Assembly: GCA_045586595.1 (NCBI GenBank)
Contig: JAZNAQ010000022.1
Span: 1,605 to 65,604, forward strand
DNA: 64,000 bases
Reading direction: 5' to 3'
Source: Eubacteriales bacterium
GTDB lineage: Bacteria; Bacillota; Clostridia; Oscillospirales; JAAYXM01
Each line of letters opens with the position of its first letter. Positions within the stretch are counted from its first letter, which is position 1. The position numbers were made by a program, and so were the translations under genes. Of the stretch, positions 30,067-48,359 are shown piece by piece. The notes under the pieces were generated by a model that ran no database searches, had not been told where the DNA came from, and was given only the letters and a program-made list of their open reading frames with translations.

Positions 30067-30078
30067 AACCTACACTCC

Positions 30079-31248
30079 TTAAATTATTCTTATGCCGCCA
30101 TCAAAGCGGAATGAAAGCATTTTGCACATATCATCACCTAACATCTTTTGTATTCCAAGCTTAAACATTTCTGTCATTTCACAAGGAACAAACGCTTCGA
30201 GCGTGCCACCGAATCCCCCGCCCTGTATCCTGACCGCACCCCTGCCGCCGAGAATCTCCTCACATACAGCAAGCGCATATGCCATCTCCTGATTTTTAAC
30301 CGCACCCGATACATATATGTTCTGAAGATACTTAAACGACGAATCACCTGACTCTCTAATAAGCTTTAAGAACCCATCAAAGTTGCCGCATTTCAGGCAT
30401 TTTGCCTCCTCTTTTGCACGTCGGCTGTCACGAAAAAAGTGAACTGCCCGCAATGTGGCGCGGTCTCCCACAAGTTTTCTCACCTGTGAAACCCTGTCGT
30501 AAAACTCGCTCTCAGAAACCTCGCCGAGCACTTTTTCCCCAAATACTTCTGCAACTTTTTTCATCTCAGCAGGAATACTTGCATACTCATCTGTAAGACC
30601 TGCATGGTCAGCCCCTGCATCAATTATTGCAAGGTCATATCCGTATTTTTTTATATCACACTCTATCTTTTCGATTTTTGCCGGAGTATGTGAAAAATCA
30701 ATAAAAACAACTCCGCCCACAGCACATGCAAGCTGGTCCATGAGCCCGCCGGGCTTTCCGAAGTATTCGCGCTCTGCATACTGTCCGATTTCGGCAATTT
30801 CTTCCGGGGTTAAATTTGCGTCAAACATATCAGAAAGCGCAGTTGCCATAAGCACCTCAAATGCCGCAGAAGAGGATAACCCTGAGCCGCGAAGTATATC
30901 TGATACTATATACATATCCGCACCGGATAAATTTTTACCTCTCTTTAAAAATCCGGCTGCAATGCCTCTTACTAATGCCTTGGTCGTGTTTCTTTCTGTT
31001 TCTCTCGGTGATAAATCCGAAAGGTCTATATCTATCTGACGGTATCCTTCGCTTTTTACGCTAATAACACGCTTTCCGTTCTTTGCAACAGCTGCTTTCA
31101 TATCAAGGTTAATACTCGCCGCAAGCACACAACCACACTGATGGTCAGTATGGTTTCCGCCAAGCTCAACTCTTCCGGGCGCACCGTAAACACGAATATC
31201 CTCTTTTTCACCAAACACTCTTTTAAAAGAATTTATAAGTTCTTTCAT
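30079..31248 (-). CDS. galK: Galactokinase
   Basis: 389 aa with the GAPGRVELGGNHTDH galactokinase signature and GHMP motif GSGLSSSAA. Confidence 0.92.
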   Translation of the reverse strand: MKELINSFKRVFGEKEDIRVYGAPGRVELGGNHTDHQCGCVLAASINLDMKAAVAKNGKRVISVKSEGYRQIDIDLSDLSPRETERNTTKALVRGIAAGFLKRGKNLSGADMYIVSDILRGSGLSSSAAFEVLMATALSDMFDANLTPEEIAEIGQYAEREYFGKPGGLMDQLACAVGGVVFIDFSHTPAKIEKIECDIKKYGYDLAIIDAGADHAGLTDEYASIPAEMKKVAEVFGEKVLGEVSESEFYDRVSQVRKLVGDRATLRAVHFFRDSRRAKEEAKCLKCGNFDGFLKLIRESGDSSFKYLQNIYVSGAVKNQEMAYALAVCEEILGGRGAVRIQGGGFGGTLEAFVPCEMTEMFKLGIQKMLGDDMCKMLSFRFDGGIRII

Positions 31249-32664: not shown

Positions 32665-32702
32665 CCGCACAGGAGATCAAAATTTCCGTGCGGTATCTTC
32701 TT
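32656..32702. terminator. Hairpin terminator after the orphan tRNA 3' fragment (also abuts the stop of the convergent EAL gene)
   Basis: AAGAAGATACCGCAC...GTGCGGTATCTTCTT, a 15-bp stem. Confidence 0.6.
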
Positions 32703-34096
32703 TAGTTTTTGTCATGCTTATATCTTTTCATAAACAGCTCACTCTCTTCAACCGGAAGCGGTTTCGAATAATACCATCCCTGAACATAATCGCAGTCTGA
32801 TTCTGATACAAGTTTGTTTTGTGCTTCGGTCTCAACACCCTCGCAAATCACCTTAATATTCAGATTGTGCGCAAGAGCGATAATGCCGGAGAAGAGGTCT
32901 CTTCCTTTTTTCGTATCCGTCTTAAGAAGAATATCGCGGTCGATTTTGACAACATCAATCGGATAATCGCAAAGATTAACAAGTGAAGTATATCCGCTTC
33001 CGAGGTCATCGAGATAGACATTAAAGCCGAGCGCCTTGCACTTTGCAACATTCTCCGTTGCCAGTTCCCTGTCTTTTTCCATCGCATCTTCGGTAATCTC
33101 AATAACAAGCTTTGACTTGTCAAATTTATAGCTGTTTGCAATCTCTGTAAATCTGTCAATAAAATTCTCTTCTGAGAGCGTAATTCGCGTGAAGTTACAG
33201 GAAATCATAATATCTTTACATTCTGTATCATTCCACTTTTCAAGCTGACGGCAGACAAGCTCAAACATATAAAAATCAAGTTTACTGATGAGGCCCACCG
33301 TTTCCATGTTTTCTATATACATACTCGGTGGAAGTAACCCCTTGTCCACACTATTCCATCTTGAAAGAGCTTCGGCGGATACTATTTTTTTCGTTTTGTT
33401 GTCAACAACAAACTGCAGATACATCTTAAACTCGTTGTTTTCAAAGCCCTTGAGTATATTCTCTGTAATTTGTTTTTCTTGCTGAATCGAACTCATAGAA
33501 TTGGAATCGCAATATACAATCTGTTTTTCGGTACCAAAAATCCTGTTGCAGTTTTTTCTCAGATTAAAAAGCAAAAGCTCACAGTTTAAATCAGATTCTG
33601 AAAGCGGATATACTGCTGCGTAGAACATAAGCTTTCGCCTTCTGTCTTCTGTCTTTCCAAAAGCATTGAGCGCACCCATAAGCTCATTCAGCCTTTTTTT
33701 GGCGTTCTCATCATCCGTCGCACGGAAAGCAAAAGCAAACCCGTTTTCGGTAATTCTTGCGGAGATTTCTTTTTCTTCTGTATGCTCCGTCAAAACAGAT
33801 GCGGCATACTTCAGCACATCCGTAAATGAATTTCCGTCGTGATACGGTCTTAAATAAGTGCTGTCCAAAATAATATACGCAACATGATACGTACTTCTCA
33901 GGATATCACCTATAGTGTACTTGAAATGATACTTAAAAAACTGCAGGTTCCCTATCCCTGTTTCAGTATCCGTCATTTTGCCTGCTTCTTTTTCTTTTTT
34001 TACTTGCCTTATTTTCACGAGCAAAACCGCTATCAAAACGAGCAAAACAGGAACAAGAACAAACCTTATCAAAATTTTATCCATCGGACTGATCAC
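32702..34096 (-). CDS. Membrane-anchored c-di-GMP phosphodiesterase (degenerate GGDEF-like region + EAL)
   Basis: 464 aa with an N-terminal TM helix and EAL motifs (SAEALSRW, DDLGSGYTSL, VKIDRD, EGVE). Confidence 0.8.
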   Translation of the reverse strand: MISPMDKILIRFVLVPVLLVLIAVLLVKIRQVKKEKEAGKMTDTETGIGNLQFFKYHFKYTIGDILRSTYHVAYIILDSTYLRPYHDGNSFTDVLKYAASVLTEHTEEKEISARITENGFAFAFRATDDENAKKRLNELMGALNAFGKTEDRRRKLMFYAAVYPLSESDLNCELLLFNLRKNCNRIFGTEKQIVYCDSNSMSSIQQEKQITENILKGFENNEFKMYLQFVVDNKTKKIVSAEALSRWNSVDKGLLPPSMYIENMETVGLISKLDFYMFELVCRQLEKWNDTECKDIMISCNFTRITLSEENFIDRFTEIANSYKFDKSKLVIEITEDAMEKDRELATENVAKCKALGFNVYLDDLGSGYTSLVNLCDYPIDVVKIDRDILLKTDTKKGRDLFSGIIALAHNLNIKVICEGVETEAQNKLVSESDCDYVQGWYYSKPLPVEESELFMKRYKHDKN

Positions 34097-34327: not shown

Positions 34328-36628
34328 TTAATCTTTTGCAAAAACCCAGAGTGTTTCGTTAACACGCTCTTCTTCGTCGTTTAACTTATATACGCTGAGA
34401 ATAACAATTTCTCCGTTTACCCTCTTATAAGTAATTTTTGGAGTCTTACCTGCCATAAGCTGTTTTCTGATAGCGTCATAATTCAAGAAACTTGCCATAG
34501 ATCTGTGAAAATCGGGATGCACCATGTCACCCACATACGCTTCCAGTAGCTTTGAAAACTGTTCTTCATTTTCTTTATATCCCAGGTATGATGGCATAAG
34601 GATTCTGTATGCTCTATTCGTATCAAGAGAAACACGGTAGATTCCGTTATAATGCTCTTTCAACACAGAAATCATAGTATCAATTTCGCGAATTCCTGTT
34701 TTAGTCTGAACATAGCTGATATCTTCTGTTTCAACCGTACTCTTGTTTTCTTTGTTCTGGTAATACTGAGCCTTTGCTTCATACATTCTTATCTCAGCTT
34801 CTCTTACCATCTCTTCAGTGTCAGTGTTCTGGGTTCTGTAAGATGTACCGATTGCAACATTATAATTCATCGGCTTGAGTCGCTCTACAAGGAGAGATAC
34901 CCCATTTTTAATCAAACTCGCATCGGTTTCTTTTGCGAAAACAAGGAACTCGTCGCCGCCCATACGGTATATGTTGTGCCCATAAAATACTTCTTTTAAT
35001 GTATTTGCGATAAATATCAACATCTCATCGCCTTTGGCATGGCCGTATTTATTGTTTATGAGATGGAGCTCATTTACGTCAATGTAAACACAAGAAAAAT
35101 CTCTCGGTTTTTCGTTGTCAAACTCGTATAAATCCCTCTTATAAACAACGCGGTTGAGCACGCCCGTGAGCGAGTCTGTTGTTGCTGCATGCTCTGTTCT
35201 GTTGAGATGCTTCTTGTTGTAGAGTGCAATAGAGAAGCAAACGGCAATATTCTCTGCAAGAAGTCTTGCAGCTCTGCTCCTTGCCGGATTTATTGTACCG
35301 ATAATGGTGATCTGATTATCCTTGCTTGTTACGGCAGCAAAAGAAGCTTCTCTTATGCCATGAACTTTTAAAAATTCAAAAAATCTCGGGTTAGTTTTTG
35401 AAAGATGCTCATTCGGAACAATGCGCATGACACTGACGGTTGATTCACTTGTCTTTCGAAGCTGCGCTGAATAATGCAAGAGCTCTTCAATAAAATATTT
35501 TCTGTTCTCGCCGACTAAAAGATTATTTTCGTCTGTCGGCAAAACATAATGATAATTTTCTCCGTCAGTATCAAAAAAATATGCCGACTTTGCCCTTGGA
35601 AATTCACAGATCTTACGGAGTGCTTCTGTTATATTATTCTGCTGCTGATTTATCTCGAGAAGAGTTTTTCTCACATGCGAAGCACAGATAGTTACAGCAT
35701 TCCTCCGTCTTTCGTCAGCCATAACAATCAGCACATACAACACCATTACAACAGCCATCGCAAGGAAGGTGTAAACCAAAACACTTAATATGTTATGCGT
35801 ATCGGCAAAAACCTGTGACTCATATCGAGCAAGCATAATTCCCCAGTTAGAATCCTCTAACGTGGAGTAATGAACATACAAATCCTCTCCCGTAAGTATT
35901 GACTTGAACGAGGAGAATCCTTTATCAGATGTTTTTAACTCTTCATATGTATATCCGTCATTATACTTTCTGTTTTCAAATTGCGATAATTCGCCGGGAG
36001 TTTTGTTGATTGTATCAATAACAAACTTTCCGCTTTCTTTGTCGTACACAAAAAGCTGTGCATCAAGCTCTCTTGCCATTGTTACATACTTCTCACCTAT
36101 TGTTTCAAGCTTTATAACGCCGTACAACATGCCTACTGTCTTTTCGCCAACTTTAATCGGAACAGCGCTTCTTATAATCTCATAATCTTTTCGTGTAAGG
36201 TCAGAAACTCTACCGCTTATATATGCACCTTTACGGGCTTCTTCCTCAAAAGAAATTTTGCCGTTTAAATCCAGCGAGCCCGCTTTTGTAACAAACGTAT
36301 TATCCGGATTCAGAATGCCAATATTCGAGAACAAGCCTATTGGTTCAAATGACGCAAACATCCTGTCATAGTTTTCGCCGTCAGCATACAGCTTTGCAGC
36401 AAAATGCGCCATCGTAACAAGATTTTCTCTGTCAGATTTTATCTGCAGTGTCAAGTCGTCTTTAATCTGCTTTGTCTGAAGATGGAGCATTTCGTATGCC
36501 TCATCTTCAGCCTTTGTATGCAACCAGCTGACCATAGATAAAAATATCGCGCACAACAAAACAACGGTTATAACCGTATAAACAATGTTATTTTGTCTCT
36601 GCTTTCTTTTCCCGTATGTTGCTGCCAT
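34328..36628 (-). CDS. Sensor diguanylate cyclase (TM, extracytoplasmic Cache-like domain, TM, GAF/PAS-like, GGDEF, extra C-terminal domain)
   Basis: 766 aa with an intact RMGGDEF active site. About 190 aa of unassigned domain follow the GGDEF. Confidence 0.8.
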   Translation of the reverse strand: MAATYGKRKQRQNNIVYTVITVVLLCAIFLSMVSWLHTKAEDEAYEMLHLQTKQIKDDLTLQIKSDRENLVTMAHFAAKLYADGENYDRMFASFEPIGLFSNIGILNPDNTFVTKAGSLDLNGKISFEEEARKGAYISGRVSDLTRKDYEIIRSAVPIKVGEKTVGMLYGVIKLETIGEKYVTMARELDAQLFVYDKESGKFVIDTINKTPGELSQFENRKYNDGYTYEELKTSDKGFSSFKSILTGEDLYVHYSTLEDSNWGIMLARYESQVFADTHNILSVLVYTFLAMAVVMVLYVLIVMADERRRNAVTICASHVRKTLLEINQQQNNITEALRKICEFPRAKSAYFFDTDGENYHYVLPTDENNLLVGENRKYFIEELLHYSAQLRKTSESTVSVMRIVPNEHLSKTNPRFFEFLKVHGIREASFAAVTSKDNQITIIGTINPARSRAARLLAENIAVCFSIALYNKKHLNRTEHAATTDSLTGVLNRVVYKRDLYEFDNEKPRDFSCVYIDVNELHLINNKYGHAKGDEMLIFIANTLKEVFYGHNIYRMGGDEFLVFAKETDASLIKNGVSLLVERLKPMNYNVAIGTSYRTQNTDTEEMVREAEIRMYEAKAQYYQNKENKSTVETEDISYVQTKTGIREIDTMISVLKEHYNGIYRVSLDTNRAYRILMPSYLGYKENEEQFSKLLEAYVGDMVHPDFHRSMASFLNYDAIRKQLMAGKTPKITYKRVNGEIVILSVYKLNDEEERVNETLWVFAKD

Positions 36629-36795
36629 TTTGAATATCTTCTTTCATAATTATATATGTATAGCTCTGTTTTTTATATTATACCACTAATTCTTACCTAA
36701 AACAACATAAATGTGTTTTAAAGTGCAAGTATTCTCCACAAAACGCATACACCGCACGGGTGTTTTCGCTTCCCATACGGCGTATTTTGAATAAT

Positions 36796-37467
36796 TTATC
36801 CGTGATATTCACCGTTGTACTGGATGAGAGTAACGTCCTCTACGCCCTCAACTGCGCGTATTTTCTCAAGGATGAAGGTGTCGTTGTTCTTGCAGTAAAC
36901 CTCAACTGCCATTTCAACGACATCCTTTCTGACAGTTTTTGATTTTATGAAATACTTCATCTTACCAAACGCGCGAAGGATGTTGTCCCCTGCCTCGTCT
37001 GTAACGTAATGTATAACCGCTATGTAGATTCTGCCTTTAAGCTGATGCTTGTTGAATATTATGATAATCAATACCATAACTGCGGCAGCCACAAGCACCA
37101 AAAGGTACATATTTGCACCTGAAGCAATGCCTGATGTTATTGCCCAGAACAGGTAAAGAAGGTCAAGCGGGTCTTTTACCGCAGTTCGGAAACGGACAAT
37201 TGAAAGCGCACCAACCATACCGAGCGATATTACGATGTTTGTACTTATGGCAAGAGTTATTACCGCGGTCATAATCGTCATACCAATAAGCGTTACGGCA
37301 AAGCTTCTTGAATAAATAACACCTGTATAGAACTTCTGATAGGTCAGGTATATAACCGAGCCGATTATAATTGCGGTAACGAGTCCGAGCGCAATGTTTG
37401 TCAGACTCAGCCCGTCAAATGCGCCTGATTCAAGTATTGATTTTTTAATAACGTCTTGAATGCTCAT
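36796..37467 (-). CDS. DUF4956-family membrane protein
   Basis: 223 aa with 4 TM helices and a cytoplasmic C-terminal domain. The SIVRFRTAVKDPLDL motif is typical of the family that accompanies VTC/CotH genes. Confidence 0.7.
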   Translation of the reverse strand: MSIQDVIKKSILESGAFDGLSLTNIALGLVTAIIIGSVIYLTYQKFYTGVIYSRSFAVTLIGMTIMTAVITLAISTNIVISLGMVGALSIVRFRTAVKDPLDLLYLFWAITSGIASGANMYLLVLVAAAVMVLIIIIFNKHQLKGRIYIAVIHYVTDEAGDNILRAFGKMKYFIKSKTVRKDVVEMAVEVYCKNNDTFILEKIRAVEGVEDVTLIQYNGEYHG

Positions 37468-37481
37468 ATTTCTATCTCCCC

Positions 37482-38204
37482 TTAATTATCATACCAGTAT
37501 TTTGTAAAAGCGTTCATATATTCGGTTTTCTCGTAGCAAAGAACATATTTTGATACCGCTGTGAACTCCGAACCTCTATCAGGCAGTATCTCGCGAACAC
37601 CCTGCGGAAGAAACTCCGTAAATTTCACTTCCATAACACATTTCCCCGGTTCAAGCACCGGAAGGGTCGGAAGGGTTGAATCAAATATATCAAAGCTCCC
37701 GACAGCCGCCCGAACATCCATATCAAAAGTTATTCTGACCGTACCCTCATCAGCAATCCACGGCTCACGATCATAGTCAACGGTCACCCTCGGGCGCATA
37801 ACATTAGATACACACTCAAAATAAAACTCTCTTAAGAGGGGCTTATCACTCTGAAGCAGAAAATCATAATGTCCATCTAAAATTTTATAAACTTCATCTC
37901 GTGAAAGGCTCGCCGCTTCTTTGAAAATGTAGCTTCCGTATTTTTTCTTTCGTTCTAATTTTATGCTTGAATCAGAGCAGTTGTATATGCGGATGCGGTA
38001 TTTTTTTCGTTGAAGAAAACCACCCTCTTTTTCTTCATAAGCCGTATTGTAGTAATCGTCAAAATAAAGACTTCGTATCATATATCCGCCGTTTTTCGCG
38101 TGTTTATCAAGTTCGAGATACGGTGAAAGCCTTTTGCAGATTACCTCTTTTTGTGCAGTATCAATAAGATACTTCCACTCGTTTCTGTATCTCTCAGCCT
38201 TCAT
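37482..38204 (-). CDS. VTC-domain (polyphosphate polymerase-like, CYTH-type) protein
   Basis: About 240 aa from ATG 38204 (RBS GGAGGA 6 nt upstream, inside the cotH 3' end). YRNEWKY...RSLYFD...RKKYRIRIY are typical of bacterial VTC-domain proteins. Confidence 0.72.
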   Translation of the reverse strand: MKAERYRNEWKYLIDTAQKEVICKRLSPYLELDKHAKNGGYMIRSLYFDDYYNTAYEEKEGGFLQRKKYRIRIYNCSDSSIKLERKKKYGSYIFKEAASLSRDEVYKILDGHYDFLLQSDKPLLREFYFECVSNVMRPRVTVDYDREPWIADEGTVRITFDMDVRAAVGSFDIFDSTLPTLPVLEPGKCVMEVKFTEFLPQGVREILPDRGSEFTAVSKYVLCYEKTEYMNAFTKYWYDN

Positions 38205-39960
38205 ATATATCCTCCACGACGTTGCCGCGAGCATCTATATAGAAGCACTTCGTACCGTACTTTTTAGCACCGTCAACATAATAATAGTCAAAAGCTGTCT
38301 GAGTGTATCCGCTTTTGTTTGTTGCGGTTACCTTTATGAAGTACTGCCCCTGTGGAAGCATATTTATTTCGGTGATAGGAAGTGATACATCCTGCTTGTT
38401 AAGGATGAGATTGCTGAAATTAAAGTCCCTTGCGACCTGTATATCGTATGTGATTTGCTCGGCATCAAAGTCAAACGCGCTCTGGCTTGAAATGATAAGT
38501 TTGTCACCATTCTTTCTCGGCACATCTATATAAAACGGCATAGGTTTTTCAAATGATGCCTTGTACAGTTTGTGGTTCAGTTCAATTTCCGAGGACAAAC
38601 CGTTCACAACCCTGTCATACTGCCCGGAGGTGAGCGGTATGTGGAGAATGTCAGGATAAGAATAAACATACGGTTTTACTATGGCCGCATATCTCTTTGC
38701 AATACTATCTACTTTCTCTTTTGACAGGTAGTTTGTTTTAAGGTCGCTTATTGCATCGTCAAGAGCCTTCCTAAATTTTTCGCTCTTGAGCGCTCTCTGA
38801 AACAGCACGTTACCCCAGTAGTTACTGACGCCCGTTTCCCACTCTGCATAAGAGACCCTGTTCTGCTCAGAATACTCTGTTTTATTCAGCATGCCGTCGT
38901 TATCCCATGATATAAAATACCATTTATCAAGGTTTAACGGGCTGTATATGTATACATTTCGGCTCTGCGTGTCGGCATTACCCGTAAGGATATGGAATGC
39001 CATCCAATAGCTTAGGTTCTCGATGTCGAAATGCTTGTCGAGGATCTCTTCAATAGGCTTTGAAAAATCGTTTACATCCTCAAGCATTTTAATGAGCTTT
39101 TCGTGGTTATCGTTACCTTTTGTTTCTATGAGCTCTTCAAATGCCGCCTCGTTAAATGTCGGGTCCTCCTTCATTTTTATTACATCTTCGTATCTGTAAA
39201 ACTCAAACACATTTATTTTATAAAGGTGTCCGTTTGCATCAAGGCCGTGCGCCTTCAGCGCTTTTTTGTTAAGCTGTTCAACAAAAGTATAGATGCCGTA
39301 ATCGGTAAATTCGTTGTTTCCGCCGACAGTAGTATCCTTTACATACAGATGAACAAATTTCGTACGGAGTGCCATCATCTGCGGAACTCCGGCAATAAGG
39401 TCATATGCCATCTTGTTGCGGAACCTGAGCCCCTCGTTGATGTGCTTATTCAAAGGAATAGAGGTATTCCCCATCCACATTCCTTTGTTGTCCTTAAGGC
39501 TTATCTTATAGTTTTTTACAGACTGACGGCTTGACGTCTGACCGCGGATCTGTATCGTGCAGTTTGGTGAAACCTGACCATAACCGAGTTTTCCGGGAAG
39601 CGGACCTGACTCATCGCCAATCTGCAAAAGTCCCTCAACCTTGTATCTTTCAACGCCCATATCCTCATAGTCGAATACGGAATATGTATTTATCTCGCTC
39701 CAGGTATGGTTTGTTTTTTCGCCTTCGTTGCCTCCTGAAACGGTAAGATACATTGTTACAACGTCTTCGGGTTTATCAACTGTATATAAATCCTTTTTAT
39801 CGCGGAGCTTATATTTTTCATTGTATTCCAAATCAGGCACATAAACACTCTCAGGTGCTTGGGACTCCGTTTCTTCCTCCTGCGGCAAAAAGACAGCGCA
39901 GCCCGACAAAAGGATACTCAATATAGTCAGCAAAGAGATAATTTTTAATGTGTTTTTCAT
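38194..39960 (-). CDS. CotH-family atypical kinase, predicted lipoprotein
   Basis: 588 aa with a lipobox (LLSGC-AV). CotH-like core plus a C-terminal beta-rich (Ig/FN3-like) domain. Its ATG overlaps the pelG TGA (ATGA). Confidence 0.72.
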   Translation of the reverse strand: MKNTLKIISLLTILSILLSGCAVFLPQEEETESQAPESVYVPDLEYNEKYKLRDKKDLYTVDKPEDVVTMYLTVSGGNEGEKTNHTWSEINTYSVFDYEDMGVERYKVEGLLQIGDESGPLPGKLGYGQVSPNCTIQIRGQTSSRQSVKNYKISLKDNKGMWMGNTSIPLNKHINEGLRFRNKMAYDLIAGVPQMMALRTKFVHLYVKDTTVGGNNEFTDYGIYTFVEQLNKKALKAHGLDANGHLYKINVFEFYRYEDVIKMKEDPTFNEAAFEELIETKGNDNHEKLIKMLEDVNDFSKPIEEILDKHFDIENLSYWMAFHILTGNADTQSRNVYIYSPLNLDKWYFISWDNDGMLNKTEYSEQNRVSYAEWETGVSNYWGNVLFQRALKSEKFRKALDDAISDLKTNYLSKEKVDSIAKRYAAIVKPYVYSYPDILHIPLTSGQYDRVVNGLSSEIELNHKLYKASFEKPMPFYIDVPRKNGDKLIISSQSAFDFDAEQITYDIQVARDFNFSNLILNKQDVSLPITEINMLPQGQYFIKVTATNKSGYTQTAFDYYYVDGAKKYGTKCFYIDARGNVVEDIYEG

Positions 39961-41417
39961 TTCTTATCCGCCTCCAGCTTATCTTCAAGAAATACCTTCA
40001 TTTTTCGGAACACTCCCGACTTGTCCTCATTCACAAGCGGTTGAACCGCAAGTATATAGTAAGGCAAGCGTTTTGTGAAATAATCAAGCCTTACAATCGC
40101 CGTTATCACGAAAATCATCGATGCTATTAAAAACCCGAACCCGTAATAAACCTGTGGCAAAAACAGAGATATCACGGAAAGAACAACAGAGCCTGCCGCA
40201 AAAAGCCCCGTTGCAAAAAAAGCACCTTTATAGTCGGTAAAATACAAAAGCATAAGCATCGTCATATTTCCGATGGCGTAAAGCCCGTATCCTACGCACA
40301 GAGTTCTGAAATACCCTCTCATCATTTCGTTGAACCCGAGAGGCAAAATATCAAGCAAGAATCCGCCAGCCGCTATGAACAGCGCTGTACACAAAAGCTG
40401 TTTTATTGCAGTATAGAGCATTTCTGTTTTCAGTGTATCAAGCATTTCTTTTTCTGCCTGAAGAATATCTTTTACAGTGCCCTTATCGTTGTATAGGCTA
40501 TAATGATTTCTATACTTCCCATAAAAATTAACCTCAACCGATACAACAAAGTTTACGGTTGTGATAAGCGTAGTCATAAAAGCAAGAAGTGCAGGAACAT
40601 CGTGTTCCGGAGCACCGTAGAAAAGCCCTTGCACCTTTATGCCTATATCAGAAAACCACATTATCACAAGGTGCGAAAACATTCCGATATTCACAAAAAA
40701 ACCCGACAGTGCAAGATACAAATATTCATCTACCCATTCAAGGAAAACAAATGCGCCGACATCTGATTTTGGAAAATATTTGTGAAGAAGTACTAAATTC
40801 CATATGACCATAACGCCATATCCTACTGTTATGGAAAGAAGAAGCATTTCTATTACATATGTTTTAAAAGCAAACGTCAAAACAAAACCGAGAACAAATA
40901 TCACAAGTATCGCAACAAAATACGAAAGAAAGATTCCTCTATAATCCTTTATGGCTGTGAGATAGCTCATGGCATTCCATACTACTATCATCTCGTTGAA
41001 GAATATAAACATAAGCGCACAGCATAAAAGGTTTGCGCCCGAGAATGCAAGAAACGCCGTCCACAGTACGCTTCCAATTGTCATCATGAGCGCACTGCTT
41101 CCCCAGAACGACGGAAGCACTGCACTCTTTTTTTCTTCATAGAGCATATCTGCGGTAAATCTGGTTATTGTCATTGAGAAGAAGGACGTAACAATAATTG
41201 ACGCGAGTAGCGTATAGGTTATCATGCATATAAGAAGTTCTCTCGACTGGGTTTCTATCCCTGCCCTTTTGCACAAAAACATTATGCCGAGCAACAGAAT
41301 AACACCAAGAAGCATTGGTCCTGAACAAATAACTGTAGCATAACCGTATGCCTTAGCCGAATTGAGTATTCCCTTTTTTTGAAAGAGCTTCTTAAGTTCA
41401 AACCCTATGCCTGCCAA
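39957..41417 (-). CDS. pelG: Pel exopolysaccharide export/polymerisation membrane protein PelG
   Basis: 486 aa, about 12 TM helices. The MAGIGFELKKL N-terminus is characteristic of PelG. Confidence 0.8.
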   Translation of the reverse strand: MAGIGFELKKLFQKKGILNSAKAYGYATVICSGPMLLGVILLLGIMFLCKRAGIETQSRELLICMITYTLLASIIVTSFFSMTITRFTADMLYEEKKSAVLPSFWGSSALMMTIGSVLWTAFLAFSGANLLCCALMFIFFNEMIVVWNAMSYLTAIKDYRGIFLSYFVAILVIFVLGFVLTFAFKTYVIEMLLLSITVGYGVMVIWNLVLLHKYFPKSDVGAFVFLEWVDEYLYLALSGFFVNIGMFSHLVIMWFSDIGIKVQGLFYGAPEHDVPALLAFMTTLITTVNFVVSVEVNFYGKYRNHYSLYNDKGTVKDILQAEKEMLDTLKTEMLYTAIKQLLCTALFIAAGGFLLDILPLGFNEMMRGYFRTLCVGYGLYAIGNMTMLMLLYFTDYKGAFFATGLFAAGSVVLSVISLFLPQVYYGFGFLIASMIFVITAIVRLDYFTKRLPYYILAVQPLVNEDKSGVFRKMKVFLEDKLEADKK

Positions 41418-42835
41418 CCTTCTTCTACCTCCTTGTAAAGATTTCTGTATTTGCCAAGCATTATCGCATATCGGTAATACTCATATGCTCTCTTTTTGGC
41501 AATTTCTCCCATTTTGAGTCTCAACTGTCTCGACTCACACATAACTTCCATTCGGTCAGCGAGCTTTTCTCTCTGCATAGGCGGAACGCAATATCCCGCT
41601 ACACCGAAAGTGTCTTCAGGGCTTCCTTCCAGTAGTTCCCTGCAACAACCGACATCGGTGGTTACGCACGGCCTTCCTGCGGCAAACGACTCGAGCACAG
41701 ACAGCGGCTGACCTTCAGAAATACTCGTAAGTATTGTAAAGTCAAGCTTTTCAAAATATTTGACAACATCAACTCTTCCCGGCATTATGACCTTGTCATC
41801 TATACCCAGCTGTGTAATCAGATCTCTGCATTCTGCCGCATATTCCTCGTCGTCCACGCCACCCATTATGTGCAATCTGACGTTATCCATTCGGGTAGAC
41901 AGCTCAAAAAAGGAATAGATCATCGTTTTGATATCCTTGATCGGCGCAAATCTGACAACTGCCCCGATATCAACATATCCGTCATCTTCTTTTAGCGGTA
42001 TGTCGCAGAATCGCTCATAGCTTATGCCGTTTTCTATAACATAGCATTTAGTCTCATCACAGCCCATTTCCACCTGCGTTGCCTTGGCACGCGTAAAAAG
42101 TGATGTAACACGAAACGCACGGCCATATATAAGGTCAGAAAGCATATAAAAGAATTTAACCCACTGACCTTTAAATGCCTTCTCAACCCATTTTGCTCTT
42201 ATTATTTCCTCTTCTCTTTCTCGGGTATATATGCCGTGTTCGGTCAAGAGAACAGGTTTTTTCTTGGCATATCCGCCAAGGCTTGCGAGCAACCCGCCGT
42301 ACCCGGTTGAAATAGCGTGATAGCAGTCCGCCTCAGGCACCTCTGCGCCCATAAGATACAAAACGGGCAAAAGTCTTGAGCGCACCGAATGGAACGCATC
42401 TGAAAAAGCGGTGTATGGAAACTCCGCTTTACATATTTCTATGAGAGTTTTCAAAAAGTGTTCACTCTTCAAATAGCTCATCGGGTTTATTTTCTTTGTA
42501 TGGTACATATTAAAGAGCAAATCCCAGTCGGGTTTGTCAGAAAAAACGAGTCGTCTGAGAGCCTCGTTTTCCTTTTCTGAAAAGGTATGGTTAAATACCT
42601 TGTTAGGTTTAACCTTCAGGGCATCATCAAGAAATACCTGACGCACTTCCACAACATTTTCGGGAAGCTTATATGCAAACTTGTCCTTATCCTCGGATTT
42701 TGCGCCGATAACCCAAAGAACAAATTCGTGTTCGGGCATCTCCGTTATATATTGGTGTGCCCAGGTGGACACGCCGCCGTTTATAAAAGGGTAACACCCT
42801 TCAAGAACCATACAAATTCTCATCGTTTTCACCAA
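41405..42835 (-). CDS. pelF: Pel glycosyltransferase PelF (GT4)
   Basis: 476 aa. EGCYPFINGGVSTW at the N-terminus and the GT4 E-x7-E region (SISEGQPLSVLESFAAGRP). Confidence 0.8.
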   Translation of the reverse strand: MVKTMRICMVLEGCYPFINGGVSTWAHQYITEMPEHEFVLWVIGAKSEDKDKFAYKLPENVVEVRQVFLDDALKVKPNKVFNHTFSEKENEALRRLVFSDKPDWDLLFNMYHTKKINPMSYLKSEHFLKTLIEICKAEFPYTAFSDAFHSVRSRLLPVLYLMGAEVPEADCYHAISTGYGGLLASLGGYAKKKPVLLTEHGIYTREREEEIIRAKWVEKAFKGQWVKFFYMLSDLIYGRAFRVTSLFTRAKATQVEMGCDETKCYVIENGISYERFCDIPLKEDDGYVDIGAVVRFAPIKDIKTMIYSFFELSTRMDNVRLHIMGGVDDEEYAAECRDLITQLGIDDKVIMPGRVDVVKYFEKLDFTILTSISEGQPLSVLESFAAGRPCVTTDVGCCRELLEGSPEDTFGVAGYCVPPMQREKLADRMEVMCESRQLRLKMGEIAKKRAYEYYRYAIMLGKYRNLYKEVEEGWQA

Positions 42836-42838
42836 ACA

Positions 42839-44689
42839 CTACTTCAGATTAATTGTTACCGTTTCTTCTTCCGCACAGAGCAGATATAAGTTTCCCGTAA
42901 GATGAGAAAAACTTCCGCCTTCTACGCTTTCATATTCACCTTCATTGAAGCGGACAAAGAAGTATCCCTCATCATAAAAATTGCCGATTTTAAGCACGAG
43001 TTTGTCTTCTGTGTGCTCCTTTTCTACAGTAATTGCCGCATATCTCTGCACCGCCGCAGAAGTTTCAGAGCCTGTGAAGTTTCTGATTGTCGGCGCCGAT
43101 GTGTAGAGATAGTTTAGATATTTATCAAAGCTTACAGAAAGACTTCTCCAACCCTTTTCCGCCCCTCGCTCTGGGTCAAGCGCATCGTCAGGGTGTGTAA
43201 AGTGGCTGTTTACAAAGTGCATATTAAGCTCAGACACAAGTGCAAGCTCCATAAACGGGGTAAGCTCGCAGCTTGATATAATTCGCGGCTGATACACTCT
43301 GCCGTCGGGCAGAACGTCAAACTCCTGTGTACATCCGAATTTAAAATCGCCGTCCGGGAAATATATCCCCGATATCGTCTTTATGTGTGGATATGTACTG
43401 AACAAAAACTCTTCGCCAACCTTGGACATAATGTTTGATGGCGGAACATATAGCGACACATCAACACCGGGAAAAAGCCTTTCGCAAAGGTCTACAAGCG
43501 AGTCAAACGCACTTTTCATTGCCCACTTACTTTCCCACGTTTTATAGTCGTACAGATCTCCATAATCACATTCGCTCATACAGAGAGGCTGATGGTTATA
43601 TCCGTGGTATCCAACCTCGCCGCCCTGTCGGAGAAGCATATTTCCAAAGTTCAAAAACGTGCCCTCGTCAGGCTCTGACGGGGTTGTTCCGTCAACATTG
43701 TCATCATATCCCGTAATCGCAAGTCCCGTGTATTTTATACCGTACTTATCTGCGAAGTCCATCATTGCAGGCCACCAGATGTTGACGTAAAAATCTCTTG
43801 TTGTCGCCCCGAAATCACGCATTATATACTCATTACTGCCCTGCGGAATCTGCGACGGAAAGTCGTCGAGATAGAAGGTTGATGCATTTATAACCGGATA
43901 AACGGATATATCATCGAGCAAGCTGAAGGATGCAGCATAGAATCCGCGCGTAACCTTTTCACAAAGGCCTAAGTTATTTACAACAAACTTACCTTCTCCG
44001 TGTTTTGTTTCCCATATAAGCGGGGTGCGGCTTTCATTGTCAATCCATGCATGAACTTTCGCTCTCTGTTCATCAAGTCGAACCTCCCAAACTGAATCGT
44101 ATCCGTCCTCAACAACAAAGCCTCTGCCGCCACCAACCATAAATCCATCTTCAATATATATGCTTTCAAGATGTGCATTTTCCCACGATGCTTCCATGAT
44201 ACCGAGTGAGCTTTCAAGCACAGATACATATATATCTCTCTGAAGTGTAAGCGCAAACAAAACTTTTCCGCCAGCATACACCCAATCACTCAGGCTAATA
44301 ATATTTTCTCCTATCGGAGACAAACTGCCCAAGAGAATGACTACCTTATCATACTTTGACAAGTCCGGAAATGCACATTTTGACAAATCAGCGATGTCAT
44401 ATCCCACTTTCATATCCGACAGGATTAGAGGAAATTCATCAAGGGCTTCTTTGCTTTCAGGCTGACTCGTGTCGCACAGAACAAGTGTGTTTTTGGCAAG
44501 CGTCTCATTTGCCTGCCTCTTGGTAACAATATTCGAAGTTTCTAAAAGCTGAAGGTCGGGCTTGTTATAATTATATTGAATTCCGCTTCGCTCAACAAAA
44601 AGAACTACTGCCATAAGCGCAAACATCAAGATAACTACAAGCATGCCGTTATATCTGAATTTTAAAAATCTTTCTTTCAATCTTTCCAA
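42839..44689 (-). CDS. PelA-like polysaccharide deacetylase-type protein (DUF2194-like), membrane anchored
   Basis: 616 aa with an N-terminal TM helix and CE4-like motifs (YLDDFP, GYHGYNH). It sits between pelE-like and pelF, as in Gram-positive pel operons. Confidence 0.5.
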   Translation of the reverse strand: MERLKERFLKFRYNGMLVVILMFALMAVVLFVERSGIQYNYNKPDLQLLETSNIVTKRQANETLAKNTLVLCDTSQPESKEALDEFPLILSDMKVGYDIADLSKCAFPDLSKYDKVVILLGSLSPIGENIISLSDWVYAGGKVLFALTLQRDIYVSVLESSLGIMEASWENAHLESIYIEDGFMVGGGRGFVVEDGYDSVWEVRLDEQRAKVHAWIDNESRTPLIWETKHGEGKFVVNNLGLCEKVTRGFYAASFSLLDDISVYPVINASTFYLDDFPSQIPQGSNEYIMRDFGATTRDFYVNIWWPAMMDFADKYGIKYTGLAITGYDDNVDGTTPSEPDEGTFLNFGNMLLRQGGEVGYHGYNHQPLCMSECDYGDLYDYKTWESKWAMKSAFDSLVDLCERLFPGVDVSLYVPPSNIMSKVGEEFLFSTYPHIKTISGIYFPDGDFKFGCTQEFDVLPDGRVYQPRIISSCELTPFMELALVSELNMHFVNSHFTHPDDALDPERGAEKGWRSLSVSFDKYLNYLYTSAPTIRNFTGSETSAAVQRYAAITVEKEHTEDKLVLKIGNFYDEGYFFVRFNEGEYESVEGGSFSHLTGNLYLLCAEEETVTINLK

Positions 44690-45564
44690 AATGCTATAGC
44701 CTCCTTCACTCGTCTGGAAACAAACATTTTCTTGGACTGTATGTCAGAAATAAGCGCTTTTATTTTATCGGCCTGCTTAAGCTGAGAATAGTATTTAAGC
44801 TTAAGCAAAATGATTTCTTCATAATCTCCGTATCGCTCATCTGCCTCTGCAAGTATCTTGCCTGCAATACTGTAATTCCCAAGTGCAAACTCATTTTCGA
44901 AGTAATGCATGTAGTCTTCAAATGTTTTTACGTATCCAAGCTTTTTTGAAATGAGCTGCGAATATAGGTTTCTGTTCATAACCTCAACCTGACCGGAGAG
45001 AAGCTTCTGCTCAAGCACCTCCCATAAAAAGTCGCAGTAGCTGGAAAGAACATTGATATCATCGGGGTTTTCTTCATATTGCTTGCTGAATCTTTGAAGG
45101 GCTTCATCGTTTTCATTTGAGATTTCAACCATTGCCGTAACAGCATAATGAACAACCTCAGGGTCCTCGTTGTTTCCCGCTTTTTGCAGAAATTCAACAT
45201 ATTCCGCCGGATTATCGTTAAGAACATCCATTATTATCTCGCGGCGGACTTTGGGGGAGTTTATAATAAGAGCTTCTTCGATTGCCACAAGCGAGTCATC
45301 GTTTTTCTTTTCTTCAACTGCTATACCCTTGTAAAGTGCAGAATCAAGTTTCATCTTCTGCACCCCTACCGCTATCGTGTCGTCTTTTTCAAACACTACC
45401 TGGAAATGAAGAAACATAACCGCCATAAATCCCCAGAAAGGAAGGCATAGCACCACAAAAAACATATATTTATGGACTTTTAGAAACTTAAACCGAGTAC
45501 CAAGGAACGTAAAAATGCATAAAAGGATATGTATGAAAATCAAAACAGCAGCCAAATAATTCAT
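44677..45564 (-). CDS. PelE-like membrane-anchored helical-repeat protein
   Basis: 295 aa with 2 N-terminal TM helices and a TPR-like helical region. Assignment rests mainly on position between pelD and the pelA-like gene. Confidence 0.45.
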   Translation of the reverse strand: MNYLAAVLIFIHILLCIFTFLGTRFKFLKVHKYMFFVVLCLPFWGFMAVMFLHFQVVFEKDDTIAVGVQKMKLDSALYKGIAVEEKKNDDSLVAIEEALIINSPKVRREIIMDVLNDNPAEYVEFLQKAGNNEDPEVVHYAVTAMVEISNENDEALQRFSKQYEENPDDINVLSSYCDFLWEVLEQKLLSGQVEVMNRNLYSQLISKKLGYVKTFEDYMHYFENEFALGNYSIAGKILAEADERYGDYEEIILLKLKYYSQLKQADKIKALISDIQSKKMFVSRRVKEAIAFWKD

Positions 45565-45578
45565 ACATACCCCTCCTT

Positions 45579-48359
45579 TTATCTTATATTTATTTCTATA
45601 TCAAGACCTTCAAACCTTGGCAGAATATACTGCAAATCGCTCTTGGTCGCTTGCGACAAAAGAATCCCGAGCTTCCCGTCTTCAACCTCGCCCTGAATAT
45701 CATTTGCGCGGATTTTGCCGGCCAGCATCGCATCGACTTCCTGATATGAGTGCCCTTTTGCATCAACTTCTATAAACTCGTATGTAAACACTTTTCGCTC
45801 TGCCATACTCTTGAAGTTTGTGTGAATCTTATCAAACTCTTCTCTGTTCAGAATATGAGTATCTCGTATGTACTGACTTTCATATAAATGCTGGTTATAG
45901 TCATACGCTCTGAGAAGTGATATCTCAACGAGATCGCGCAGTATCTTAAACAGGTTTACATAGTAAAGCGAATTCTGCTCCGGCTTCACATGCCATATAA
46001 AGATCAAAAGCTCAAGCTTTTCTCGTCGCCACACGCCTGCCGCATACATTGGCAAATTCGGCAGAAATTCTGTATTTCTCCAGATTTCGTCCTTTTTAAT
46101 CTTGTCAAGAATCGGCTTGTATGTATCAAGAGATATCGATCTTGAAACCTCGCTCAATATATCTCTTGACGCTACCTCAAGCCTCCCGAACGCGCTCTTT
46201 TCGTTTATTGAATACACGCTCAGGCACTTGTTTTCAAGTGTATCCTCGAATGTATCCATAATCTTGAGGTAAAGCCTGTGCGGTTCAACTGTATCCAATT
46301 GTCTCGTAACATCAAATATTTTGCCAAAGCTGTCTTTTGAACCTATAATCTGCTTCTTAAGATCACGCTTTTCACCGAATGTATCCTGATAAAGTTCACG
46401 CGTAAACTCAAGCTTTTCTTCGAGAAGACCAATCTGTTCATTCCCGAATTTTATTTTATCATCCTTGGCAAGACGGATATATCCCGAAACCGCTCCAACG
46501 AGAAAGTAATAAACAAACGCAAACCAGTTTGACGGCTCGTAGAATATGGTAAGCCAGCTTGTTCCGGAAAGAACCTTTGCAACAAACCAAGCAACCGACG
46601 AAAGACCTGCCGCCATAAGTCCCGAATAAAGGCCGTGAACAGTTGCAACTATCACAATAAACGCCATTCTGAAATCAACGATCGCAAAAATTACCGACGA
46701 ACCTGTTGCCAAATTCAAAAGCTCTGTTACAATGAACATAAGCGCAATCTCTACGGCCTTTATGACAGGAGTATGCTCGCTCATCCATTTTTTTACTTTG
46801 CTCCTAAAGTCTGTGGCTTTGATGTTTTTTGCAACAAGATAGTTTTCATATTCCTCTTCAAGGTCATCTATAATTGATATTCTTGAAAACCAACCGTATT
46901 CGTTCCGAAGGGCAGTGTTTTTCATTTCCAGTAGCGCGCCTTCATCTTCGCCTGTAAACTTAACATAAAGGCCAGGCCAAAAGCCAGAGATTCGTTTCAT
47001 TACATCTCCAAATGTAATGTTGAACTCATCCCCTACATTAAGAGTTCCTACTCCCTCCTGCCAGTTCTCGATGAAACGAGCAACCAAAACCGAAACATCG
47101 TGCATCGAAATAAAGATTGCTCTTGAGCCTTCAATCTCCTTTAATGTAACAATTCCCGTTTCCATTTCTGAGAAAATGCCATTCAAAAAGTCGCCCTCAA
47201 GTATTCCGCTGTATAGATGAGGAATTCTCACTATCTTTATGTCAACACCAAAATGCTTCGTGTAAAATTCACACAAATTTTCCTTTGACAGTGTAATTAC
47301 ACTTATATCCTTTTTATTTGAGTACGCACCGTCAAGGGATGAGAAATATATAACTTTTGCGCCTTTCTGATATTTCGCAGTGTAGCTTAAAACTTCTCTC
47401 AGTTTTTCTGTGTCAGGCTCTGCTTTCGAGCGATATGTAAGCTCTCTTGCAAAAAAAAGCACAATGTCAAAATCGTATGTTTCAAATATTCTTTCATAAG
47501 GAATTTGTTTTCCGTTATACACCTTAACTCTGCCCTTGGATTTGAGATGTGTTTCACCGGCAATAATGATGTTGTTGTTCTCAAAAGTGTCTTCAATAAA
47601 TTTTTCCGTAATGTATCCGGTGTTTCCTATGAGCAGGATTCGTTTTGTTACAAGTGTGTTCGGTTCTGTAACGATTCTGTTTTTATTGGCAAGCTGCTCT
47701 CTTATTTCCAAAAGGTCGTTGTTGTTGACAACGTTAAGCAAGCACTCAACAAGAAAATCATCAAACACGCCACTCATGCCGTTCGCAATCATTTCTATTG
47801 CAACATCCTGTGAGAAAGCGTCTTTATAGCTTCTTGTGCTTGTGAGTGCATCAAAAGAGTCCGCTATCGAAACAACGCGCGCAGAGATGGGAATTTCTTC
47901 ACCTCTTAAGCCGTTGGGATATCCTGTTCCGTCTATTCTCTCGTGGTGGTATTTTGCAATATCCTTTGCATGTTTTATGATTTGCTCATCAATGCCCGAT
48001 GATATTTCATCAATCATCTCATGCCCTAAAACAGTGTGCTTTTTGACTATATCATACTCTATCGGAGAAAGCTTTCCCGGAAAATTAAGGATACTTTCAG
48101 GTATTCTACTCTTTCCTATATCATGAAGCGAGGATGCTATGGATATAAATCTTATGTCTTCTTCTGACAATGAGTACTTATCCGTTACGTTATTAAGCTC
48201 ACGAAGCATAAGCTCAGTGAGCATTCTGACGTGATAAATATGAAATCCCGCTTCACCGTTTAACATCTCAGGTATATTATCACTTGAAATATCAACTACT
48301 TCGAGATGTTTTTCGTCAGTTTCAGTATTCAGCACAAGAAGAGATTTTACTGATGCCAT
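45579..48359 (-). CDS. pelD: PelD-like c-di-GMP receptor fused to N-terminal HD-GYP and SDR/epimerase-like domains
   Basis: 926 aa. HD-GYP (HDIGK...HHERIDGTGYPNGL), then Rossmann LLIGNTGYIT, then 4 TM helices, then a GAF-like domain. The C-terminal degenerate GGDEF has an intact I-site (RAND, five residues, then EDGKL in place of GGDEF). Confidence 0.6.
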   Translation of the reverse strand: MASVKSLLVLNTETDEKHLEVVDISSDNIPEMLNGEAGFHIYHVRMLTELMLRELNNVTDKYSLSEEDIRFISIASSLHDIGKSRIPESILNFPGKLSPIEYDIVKKHTVLGHEMIDEISSGIDEQIIKHAKDIAKYHHERIDGTGYPNGLRGEEIPISARVVSIADSFDALTSTRSYKDAFSQDVAIEMIANGMSGVFDDFLVECLLNVVNNNDLLEIREQLANKNRIVTEPNTLVTKRILLIGNTGYITEKFIEDTFENNNIIIAGETHLKSKGRVKVYNGKQIPYERIFETYDFDIVLFFARELTYRSKAEPDTEKLREVLSYTAKYQKGAKVIYFSSLDGAYSNKKDISVITLSKENLCEFYTKHFGVDIKIVRIPHLYSGILEGDFLNGIFSEMETGIVTLKEIEGSRAIFISMHDVSVLVARFIENWQEGVGTLNVGDEFNITFGDVMKRISGFWPGLYVKFTGEDEGALLEMKNTALRNEYGWFSRISIIDDLEEEYENYLVAKNIKATDFRSKVKKWMSEHTPVIKAVEIALMFIVTELLNLATGSSVIFAIVDFRMAFIVIVATVHGLYSGLMAAGLSSVAWFVAKVLSGTSWLTIFYEPSNWFAFVYYFLVGAVSGYIRLAKDDKIKFGNEQIGLLEEKLEFTRELYQDTFGEKRDLKKQIIGSKDSFGKIFDVTRQLDTVEPHRLYLKIMDTFEDTLENKCLSVYSINEKSAFGRLEVASRDILSEVSRSISLDTYKPILDKIKKDEIWRNTEFLPNLPMYAAGVWRREKLELLIFIWHVKPEQNSLYYVNLFKILRDLVEISLLRAYDYNQHLYESQYIRDTHILNREEFDKIHTNFKSMAERKVFTYEFIEVDAKGHSYQEVDAMLAGKIRANDIQGEVEDGKLGILLSQATKSDLQYILPRFEGLDIEINIR

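Follow-up and report, generated by a model that had tools for sequence, protein, structure and literature searches.

In the Pel exopolysaccharide loci of streptococci and clostridia, Whitfield et al. (2020) found cotH, a poly-phosphate polymerase (PPP) gene, a DUF4956 gene and a DUF4832 gene contiguous with pelDEA(DA)FG; this accessory set was linked to an extra epimerase domain on PelD, a diguanylate cyclase/phosphodiesterase (DGC/PDE) gene was seen to replace DUF4832 in a bifidobacterial pel variant, and CotH was proposed to regulate Pel synthesis through protein phosphorylation (PMC7112168). The orthologues in Streptococcus intermedius (SIR_1594/1593/1592) were deleted in an mBio study of 2025, where the strain without CotH had less Pel and the strain without DUF4956 had more, and either deletion reduced aggregation in sputum medium by more than 50% (PMC12345266). 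The AlphaFold-based descriptions in that study (a secreted CotH with an FN3 domain, a VTC-like tunnel enzyme and an MgtC-like ACT protein with four transmembrane (TM) helices) agree with those given below (PMC12345266). Here we describe a trio of the same families in a 64,000-nucleotide stretch of DNA, referred to as the window, from a Eubacteriales bacterium (GTDB lineage Bacteria; Bacillota; Clostridia; Oscillospirales; JAAYXM01; assembly GCA_045586595.1, contig JAZNAQ010000022.1, positions 1,605 to 65,604). The cotH, VTC and DUF4956 open reading frames (ORFs) lie on the minus strand within window positions 36796-39960, where an initial annotation made from the sequence had placed them, their Pfam identities agree with it, and they close a tightly packed pelD-E-A(DA)-F-G operon as its final three genes. 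Families, gene order and position after pelDEA(DA)FG are like those of the published set, as is the exported CotH with its FN3 domain; the putative N-terminal SDR/epimerase-like segment of PelD and the predicted ACT-like domain of the MgtC-like DUF4956 protein may be shared as well, whereas the window has no DUF4832 hydrolase gene (GGDEF and GGDEF-EAL genes stand there instead, resembling the bifidobacterial variant), its PelD has an additional HD-GYP domain and its CotH is a lipoprotein. The window trio is a further member of the published Pel accessory class and not a discovery; what is new here is modest, namely that catalytic residues are mapped, that the synteny is shown to exist away from Pel genes, and that a VTC-DUF4956 pair with an exported partner is recognised as the general pattern.

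It is firmly supported that the trio is a conserved, self-contained module with VTC-DUF4956 as its invariant core and an extracytoplasmic third member, and equally firmly that this module usually, but not always, accompanies an exopolysaccharide system, most often Pel. We regard it as self-contained and not Pel-specific because the trio occurs without Pel genes, which contradicts the statement of the S. intermedius authors that the three-gene synteny was not found outside Pel loci (PMC12345266). The non-Pel cases came from a tblastn search of plasmid and chromid records and from one sediment contig. In Pseudobutyrivibrio xylanivorans pNP95 the order GT2-cotH-VTC-DUF4956-GT4 lies in a heteropolysaccharide cluster which also has GT61, acyltransferase, DUF6056, pyruvyl transferase and GH99-like genes. 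On a Planococcus maritimus plasmid VTC-DUF4956-cotH is followed by genes for a 689-amino-acid (aa) protein, a HEAT protein and a chitin-synthase-like GT2, and in Nonomuraea gerenzanensis VTC-DUF4956-cotH (CotH lipobox FLAAC) lies beside genes for a LuxR-type regulator, a luciferase-like enzyme and a phosphoenolpyruvate-utilising enzyme, with no polysaccharide operon adjoining the trio and one GT2 gene about 5 kb upstream. Paenibacillus cellulosilyticus has a two-component system and VTC-DUF4956 with a Cthe_2159-family lipoprotein instead of CotH. Pel homologues were absent from these four loci. On the sediment contig (L092), VTC has as neighbours genes for a sugar-phosphate transferase and a beta-helix protein.

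VTC and DUF4956 are adjacent in all five non-Pel contexts that show both (Pseudobutyrivibrio, Planococcus, Paenibacillus, Nonomuraea and, from the literature, NELoc-2 of Clostridium perfringens), and the third partner lies outside the cytoplasm in each of the four non-Pel loci analysed and in the window, being either a Cthe_2159 lipoprotein or a CotH with a lipobox, a signal anchor or a TM anchor. Between contexts CotH has diverged far more than VTC or DUF4956, and a profile of the window CotH does not detect the Planococcus or Pseudobutyrivibrio CotH proteins. According to the published descriptions, NELoc-2 has a Planococcus-like arrangement plus a polysaccharide deacetylase. As in the window, the three families are contiguous beside a synthase-type exopolysaccharide system in NELoc-2 and Planococcus, but in those loci VTC and DUF4956 precede CotH, the exopolysaccharide partner is a system other than Pel, the VTC and DUF4956 products share only 31-38% identity with their window counterparts and the CotH has 472 aa and no FN3 domain.

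Some further observations on these loci may be recorded. In Planococcus (L082, 8270-10339) and in NELoc-2 (CP4_0466) a membrane-anchored protein of about 685 aa without a Pfam domain is encoded between cotH and the HEAT/GT2 genes. On the 2.7-Mb Paenibacillus cellulosilyticus replicon (L163, 8935-14026) the Cthe_2159 (PF14262) lipoprotein gene and a second lipoprotein gene follow VTC-DUF4956, a divergent OmpR-type two-component system lies upstream, and there are no polysaccharide genes within 9 kb. In B. thetaiotaomicron a DUF4956 gene is listed beside a DUF2490 gene (BT3498-BT3499; PMC10434189), whose product would be a candidate outer-membrane partner in a Gram-negative form of the module.

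One genome-contig scan and one metagenome-contig scan together gave 160 loci, 135 of which had at least 1.6 kb upstream and could be assessed, and pelG lies upstream in 134 of these 135; the order pelD-E-A-F-G-cotH-VTC-DUF4956 is complete wherever the contig allows. Both scans are biased to close relatives and so give no unbiased rate of trios outside Pel loci: the genome scan gave only close relatives, all Pel-linked (66-96% identity to the window VTC, mostly Collinsella) and the metagenome scan, seeded with a consensus sequence for breadth, gave loci 52-58% identical to that consensus, nearly all of them Pel-linked. Sources of the loci include Collinsella, Faecalibacterium, Blautia, Lachnospiraceae and Bulleidia, with the metagenome contigs mostly from human-gut samples. 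The gene following DUF4956 varies (DUF4832, which stands next to DUF4956 in about 25 related loci, LacI, a pyridoxal phosphate (PLP) enzyme, GGDEF/EAL or unrelated genes), and therefore the conserved unit ends with DUF4956. VTC is 67-68% identical between Collinsella (Actinomycetota; L011-L080) and Clostridia, with the whole locus colinear. The 68% identity and identical order point to horizontal spread of the locus as a whole, which suggests that pel-cotH-VTC-DUF4956 has moved between phyla among gut bacteria. The initial annotation had named the Pel polymer or its proteins as candidate targets of the trio from the operon context; that context stands, with PelG, PelF, a DUF2194 PelA-like protein, a tetratricopeptide repeat (TPR) PelE-like protein and a PelD-like protein encoded directly upstream, but Pel itself as the target is weakened, since different polysaccharide systems accompany the trio elsewhere and, in Nonomuraea, no polysaccharide operon adjoins it.

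The three ORFs are genes rather than chance reading frames, because an identical CotH is already on record (P0121) and each protein has thousands of homologues. Single-sequence searches of the trio against PDB sequences gave nothing useful, and profiles were needed. The cotH-like gene (38194-39960, minus strand) encodes a 588-aa lipoprotein made up of a signal peptide, a CotH kinase domain (Pfam PF08757, E 6e-66, 223.5 bits against a cut-off of 23.8) and an FN3-like C-terminal domain. The signal peptide and lipobox, read from the sequence as MKNTLKIISLLTILSILLSGC (aa 1-21; 39898-39960), end in L-S-G-C with a Cys21 that is invariant in 28 homologues, and the hydrophobic segment covers aa 3-28; by the lipobox pattern [LVI][ASTVI][GAS]C the protein is an exported bacterial lipoprotein, as it had first been annotated. 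The kinase domain spans aa 136-464 (38569-39555, the Pfam stretch). A profile of the 28 homologues matches Bacillus cereus CotH (5jd9) with E 2e-8, and in the alignment D330, N335 and D353 of the window protein, all three invariant across the 28 homologues, correspond to D224, N229 and D247; D330 and N335 are predicted to be the catalytic-loop Asp and Asn, and D353 the metal-binding Asp. The kinase catalytic residues on which the initial annotation depended are thus in place. Through a constant numbering offset of +4, window D330 and D353 would be the counterparts of D228 and D251 in Bacillus subtilis CotH, whose D228Q and D251A mutants are inactive (PMC7821199).

The AlphaFold2 (AF2) model of CotH, with a mean predicted local distance difference test (pLDDT) score of 78.6 and a predicted template modelling score (pTM) of 0.80, matches 5jda/5jd9 in Foldseek with E 1e-13 and a target-normalised template modelling score of 0.8 (0.79 for 5jda). 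The C-terminal domain (aa ~478-585; 38206-38529) is modelled as an all-beta sandwich (pLDDT 87-95, mostly above 90) and the last ~105 residues give Foldseek matches to FN3 domains such as 6hyf and 4wtw, which bears out the Ig/FN3-like domain of the initial annotation; Pfam gave faint Ig/FN3 matches only in this region. Compared with the Bacillus spore-coat Ser/Thr kinase (5jd9/5jda), the fold and the catalytic Asp/Asn/Asp are alike, but identity is 16%, the window protein is exported and lipid-anchored whereas the Bacillus enzyme is in the mother-cell cytoplasm, there is an extra FN3 domain, CotB/CotG-like substrates are not encoded nearby, and CotH proteins of the window type are present in non-sporulating lineages (Collinsella, streptococci).

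The VTC gene (37482-38204, minus strand) was listed as an ORF of 250 aa at 37482-38234, but the start is most likely the ATG at 38204, giving 240 aa, because close homologues are nearly all of 238-242 aa and a GGAGG Shine-Dalgarno sequence lies 6 nucleotides (nt) upstream of this ATG, inside the cotH 3' end. The product is a single domain which matches Pfam VTC (PF09359, E 5e-35, 121.7 bits against a cut-off of 23) rather than CYTH; among clusters at 50% identity, 4,858 representatives are related to it (E <= 1e-3). Yeast Vtc4 (3g3q) is matched with E 7e-12, and the non-catalytic Vtc2 with only E 4e-5, by a profile built from 70 diverse homologues of 33-53% identity. Residues were mapped by counting along the alignment, 3g3q positions being shifted to those of the full-length 8i6v chain, and in the 240-aa numbering Vtc4 K200, R264, R266, K281, E426, S457 and K458 correspond to K11, R70, R72, K86, E192, S218 and K219 of the window protein; all seven positions are invariant or nearly so in the 70 bacterial homologues. 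Vtc4 K200 is said to have a catalytic role, in work by Hothorn from 2009. The yeast R264A/R266A/E426N protein is a catalytically impaired VTC mutant (PMC9911596). On these alignments it is firmly supported that both enzymes, CotH and VTC, retain their catalytic residues. The absence of a hydrophobic segment, together with the Vtc4 residues, agrees with the initial description of the VTC protein as cytoplasmic with polyphosphate (polyP)-polymerase-like motifs. As in the yeast VTC complex, a homologous tunnel domain keeps the catalytic Lys, Arg and Glu and the enzyme is cytoplasmic; here its gene adjoins that of a small multi-pass membrane protein.

Many VTC homologues (e.g. from Christensenellaceae; P0380, P0387, P0404 and P0413) have an N-terminal extension of 130-360 aa which is basic, rich in Lys, Arg, Pro and Gln, of low complexity and apparently disordered; polyP or nucleic acid might be bound by a polycationic stretch of this kind. 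The long homologues (360-590 aa) were considered as possible fusions with DUF4956 or CotH, and this was ruled out as the extensions carry no Pfam domain.

The DUF4956 gene (36796-37467, minus strand; Pfam PF16316, E 1.5e-11) encodes a 223-aa membrane protein with abundant homologues at 76-95% identity. AF2 helices and hydropathy place a membrane domain of 4-5 helices at aa 22-139 (37051-37404), with helices at about aa 22-46, 54-73, 77-93, 100-117 and 121-139, followed by a predicted cytoplasmic ACT-like domain at aa 145-216 (36820-37035; beta-alpha-beta-beta-alpha-beta, pLDDT 67-84); the initial annotation had likewise described a four-helix membrane protein with a soluble C-terminal domain. 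The AF2 model was built from a shallow alignment and its membrane domain is of low confidence, so that membrane-fold matches to it were set aside as untrustworthy (pLDDT 60.7). The C-terminal domain gave weak Foldseek matches (E 1e-3 to 5e-3) to the ACT domains 2ko1 and 3ibw and to the MgtC C-terminal domain 2lqj. The signature SLGMVGALSIVRFRTAVKDPLD at aa 81-102 has a consensus, SLGMVGALSIVRFRTAxKDxxD, that is near-invariant between proteins only 27-32% identical overall, and by the positive-inside rule it would lie at the cytoplasmic membrane interface. MgtC Pfam (PF02308) did not match the window protein; it matched 15 of 36 close homologues below threshold, at E >= 0.033, and the Planococcus homologue with 25.2 bits against a cut-off of 31.4. 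The protein may resemble MgtC/SapB (MgtC of Salmonella and M. tuberculosis) in having an ACT-like cytoplasmic domain behind a membrane domain with several helices, as a low-confidence model suggests, but all Pfam matches of DUF4956 proteins to that family are below the gathering score, it has a signature of its own (GALSIVRFRTAxKD) and its gene is always paired with a VTC gene.

The initial annotation had speculated that polyP or another phospho-donor is made inside the cell, passed through the membrane protein and used by the extracellular kinase on matrix components, and we find this interpretation to be partly supported. The yeast VTC complex links the making of polyP mechanically to movement of the chain across its membrane channel, via a ring of basic residues (PMC9911596). 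By analogy, the VTC tunnel enzyme would polymerise ATP-derived phosphate on the inner side of the membrane, and it and the MgtC-like DUF4956 protein would work as an obligate pair. The conserved basic RFRTxxKD motif of DUF4956 is probably at the cytoplasmic membrane interface, and the protein would stand in for the yeast VTC membrane channel, passing or gating the chain to the outer face. ATP is scarce outside the cell, where CotH sits. There the lipid-anchored CotH kinase may use or handle the phosphate polymer and so modify a component of the cell surface or the matrix with phosphate or polyP, and such phosphorylation would tune the retention of the cationic exopolysaccharide on the cell and the strength of aggregation. 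The module would be portable, working with Pel in most Clostridia and Collinsella of the gut and with different polysaccharide systems in other settings. This idea is coherent with the topology of the three proteins and with the yeast VTC precedent, and because it combines an enzyme inside, a membrane protein and a catalytic protein outside with that precedent, we consider it the most economical reading and rank it first, although tentatively. A more specific form of it, in which VTC-DUF4956 is a bacterial polyP synthase-translocase, functionally analogous to eukaryotic VTC though built with an MgtC-like membrane partner, and feeds the exported CotH, with polyP as an ATP-independent donor or itself transferred onto exopolysaccharide or surface proteins, we think unlikely.

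A number of points weigh against such a relay of polyP through the membrane. All characterised CotH kinases known to us use ATP on protein serines. The DUF4956 protein looks MgtC-like, with its ACT-like domain, which gives it the character of a regulator, confidence in its AF2 model is low (pLDDT 60.7), and the characterised MgtC proteins are, to our knowledge, regulators and not channels. MgtC proteins are also cited as regulators by the mBio authors, and in their study deletion of the S. intermedius VTC gene gave no aggregation or Pel phenotype (PMC12345266). A linear relay predicts that loss of VTC should copy loss of CotH, and the null VTC mutant, together with the opposite effects of CotH and DUF4956 on Pel, therefore does not fit with a simple relay of this kind. 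By Pfam and hydropathy the bacterial VTC protein lacks both an SPX domain and a fused DUF202-type channel domain, and its partner is the MgtC-like DUF4956 protein, which is unrelated to the yeast channel domain. In the literature searched, polyP synthesis by a bacterial VTC-domain protein was not reported, and a polyP review treats VTC as eukaryotic, with PPK1 and PPK2 as the only bacterial enzymes. Neither polyP export nor a polyP-dependent CotH was proposed or tested in that literature, and papers on S. sanguinis, C. perfringens RNA-seq, the Bacteroides iron response and B. adolescentis have the genes in tables only, with no function given.

Several of these points would sit more comfortably with a regulatory role, in which polyP stays in the cytoplasm, where the MgtC-like DUF4956 protein with its ACT domain would respond to polyP, to phosphate or to some metabolite by modulating the Pel synthase complex or energy/phosphate homeostasis, while CotH phosphorylates a surface or secreted protein with trace extracellular ATP, or acts before export, so that the genes share no more than regulation and a phosphate theme. 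The S. intermedius mutants differ from one another (Pel up without DUF4956, down without CotH, unchanged without VTC), the MgtC-like features of DUF4956 fit, retention of polyP in the cytoplasm was put forward as a possibility in the S. intermedius preprint, and the proposal of Whitfield et al. that protein phosphorylation by CotH regulates Pel synthesis points the same way. Such a role leaves unexplained why VTC-DUF4956 has a constant extracytoplasmic partner, even where this is not CotH, and why the trio has moved between unrelated polysaccharide systems, and it names no phosphoryl donor for a kinase anchored outside the membrane; we regard it as somewhat unlikely.

Exported polyP might instead be the product, cross-linking or neutralising a cationic, partly deacetylated amino-sugar polymer (Pel here, and a poly-N-acetylglucosamine (PNAG)/chitin-like polymer in loci of the NELoc-2 type), with CotH or Cthe_2159 binding, anchoring or trimming polyP rather than using it as a donor. 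Deacetylases accompany both recurrent partners (PelA(DA) with Pel, and the NELoc-2 deacetylase with the chitin-synthase-like GT2 of NELoc-2 and Planococcus), so these polymers should be cationic, and in Pseudomonas Pel ionically binds a polyanion, extracellular DNA (eDNA). The third partner in Paenibacillus, a Cthe_2159 lipoprotein, is of a carbohydrate-binding type and not a kinase. The strict conservation of the CotH catalytic residues, however, argues for catalysis over mere binding, deletion of VTC in S. intermedius did not affect aggregation, and the Pseudobutyrivibrio polymer is probably already anionic, given the pyruvyl transferases of its heteropolysaccharide cluster, and on balance we hold a structural role for polyP to be quite improbable.

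The triphosphate tunnel metalloenzyme (TTM)/CYTH superfamily is functionally diverse, and the VTC protein could, instead of a polyP polymerase, be a triphosphatase or a nucleotide cyclase/pyrophosphohydrolase making a small signal for the ACT domain of DUF4956, ACT domains being known to bind small ligands and no assay of a bacterial VTC-domain protein appearing in the literature searched. The match to Pfam VTC rather than CYTH, the closer relation to catalytic Vtc4 than to non-catalytic Vtc2 given above and the retention of the Vtc4 polymerase residues, including the Lys aligned with K200, make this very unlikely. Least probable of all is that there is no link, CotH being a glycan kinase or pseudokinase-like scaffold on nascent polysaccharide and the gene order a frozen accident of locus transfer, as the movement of the whole locus between phyla (VTC 68% identical, with the same order in Collinsella and Clostridia) and the greater divergence of CotH than of VTC and DUF4956 between contexts might allow, since the trio is found in at least four neighbourhoods and in two orders (cotH-VTC-DUF4956 and VTC-DUF4956-cotH), which is hard to account for without a functional link.

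The genes upstream of the trio, all on the minus strand, are a pelD-like gene (45579-48359, 926 aa), a pelE-like gene (44677-45564) whose product has two N-terminal membrane helices by hydropathy and then TPR, with weak TPR/HEAT Pfam matches, a pelA deacetylase-like gene (42839-44689; Pfam DUF2194, E 3e-145), the glycosyltransferase gene pelF (41405-42835; Pfam DUF3492, E 3e-76, plus Glycos_transf_1 (GT1)) and pelG (39957-41417; Pfam PelG, E 4e-132), with a 4-nt overlap between its stop and the beginning of cotH. The position of the pelE-like gene is kept in more than 100 related loci. Neighbouring genes have start/stop overlaps or otherwise gaps of at most 14 nt, and the trio appears to share a transcript with pelD-E-A(DA)-F-G and to be coupled to these genes in translation. 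The best promoter-like site of the region, TTGAAA-17-TATAAT upstream of pelD (48429-48457, minus strand; 11/12 matches in a consensus scan, a pattern match only), is probably the operon promoter, and a terminator-like scan found a weak hairpin 3' of the DUF4956 stop (36749-36763, minus strand) as a possible operon end, followed by an extended -10 element, TGgTATAAT, before the GGDEF gene. From the spacing, the site upstream of pelD, and the hairpin and extended -10 after DUF4956, we infer that pelD to DUF4956 form one eight-gene transcription unit.

The gene after this unit (34328-36628, minus strand) encodes a membrane GGDEF protein (Pfam GGDEF, E 8e-21) and probably has its own promoter of the TGnTATAAT type; it was considered as a member of the conserved module and rejected, the gene after DUF4956 being variable and this one having a promoter-like element of its own, and we treat it as a variable add-on outside the conserved unit. 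A GGDEF-EAL gene follows it (32702-34096, minus strand), giving a local pair for synthesis and degradation of cyclic di-GMP (c-di-GMP), comparable to the bifidobacterial pel variant. A few kb downstream of the pel locus lie genes for a galactokinase and a GalE-like NAD-dependent epimerase (29077-31248, minus strand), which could supply UDP-Gal/GalNAc precursors.

At its N-terminus the PelD-like protein carries an HD-GYP domain (Pfam HD_5, E 1e-26; motif HHERIDGTGYP), an addition that is rare, being found in 2 of 104 related PelD-bearing loci (L002 and L005), and the protein would join a putative c-di-GMP phosphodiesterase to the Pel machinery's putative receptor for this nucleotide. Its SDR/epimerase-like segment (aa 230-520), with a Rossmann-like LLIGNTGYI motif, is kept in 95 of 104 related PelD proteins and gave no Pfam epimerase match at E < 0.01; this segment and the C-terminal part are conserved among the related loci.

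Pel is a major biofilm and virulence polysaccharide, and the trio accompanies it in many human-gut Clostridia, Collinsella, Faecalibacterium and streptococci. If polyP export or matrix phosphorylation proves to be true, the trio would provide a third bacterial route to polyP besides PPK1 and PPK2, and would explain both the source of the phosphoryl donor for an extracellular kinase and how the charge of cationic matrix polymers is tuned. Were VTC-DUF4956 indeed a synthase-translocase that supplies CotH, then a bacterial VTC-type polyP polymerase, a dedicated polyP exporter and a polyP-driven extracellular kinase would each be the first of its sort, and the module would be a portable system serving Pel, PNAG/chitin-like and heteropolysaccharide pathways alike.

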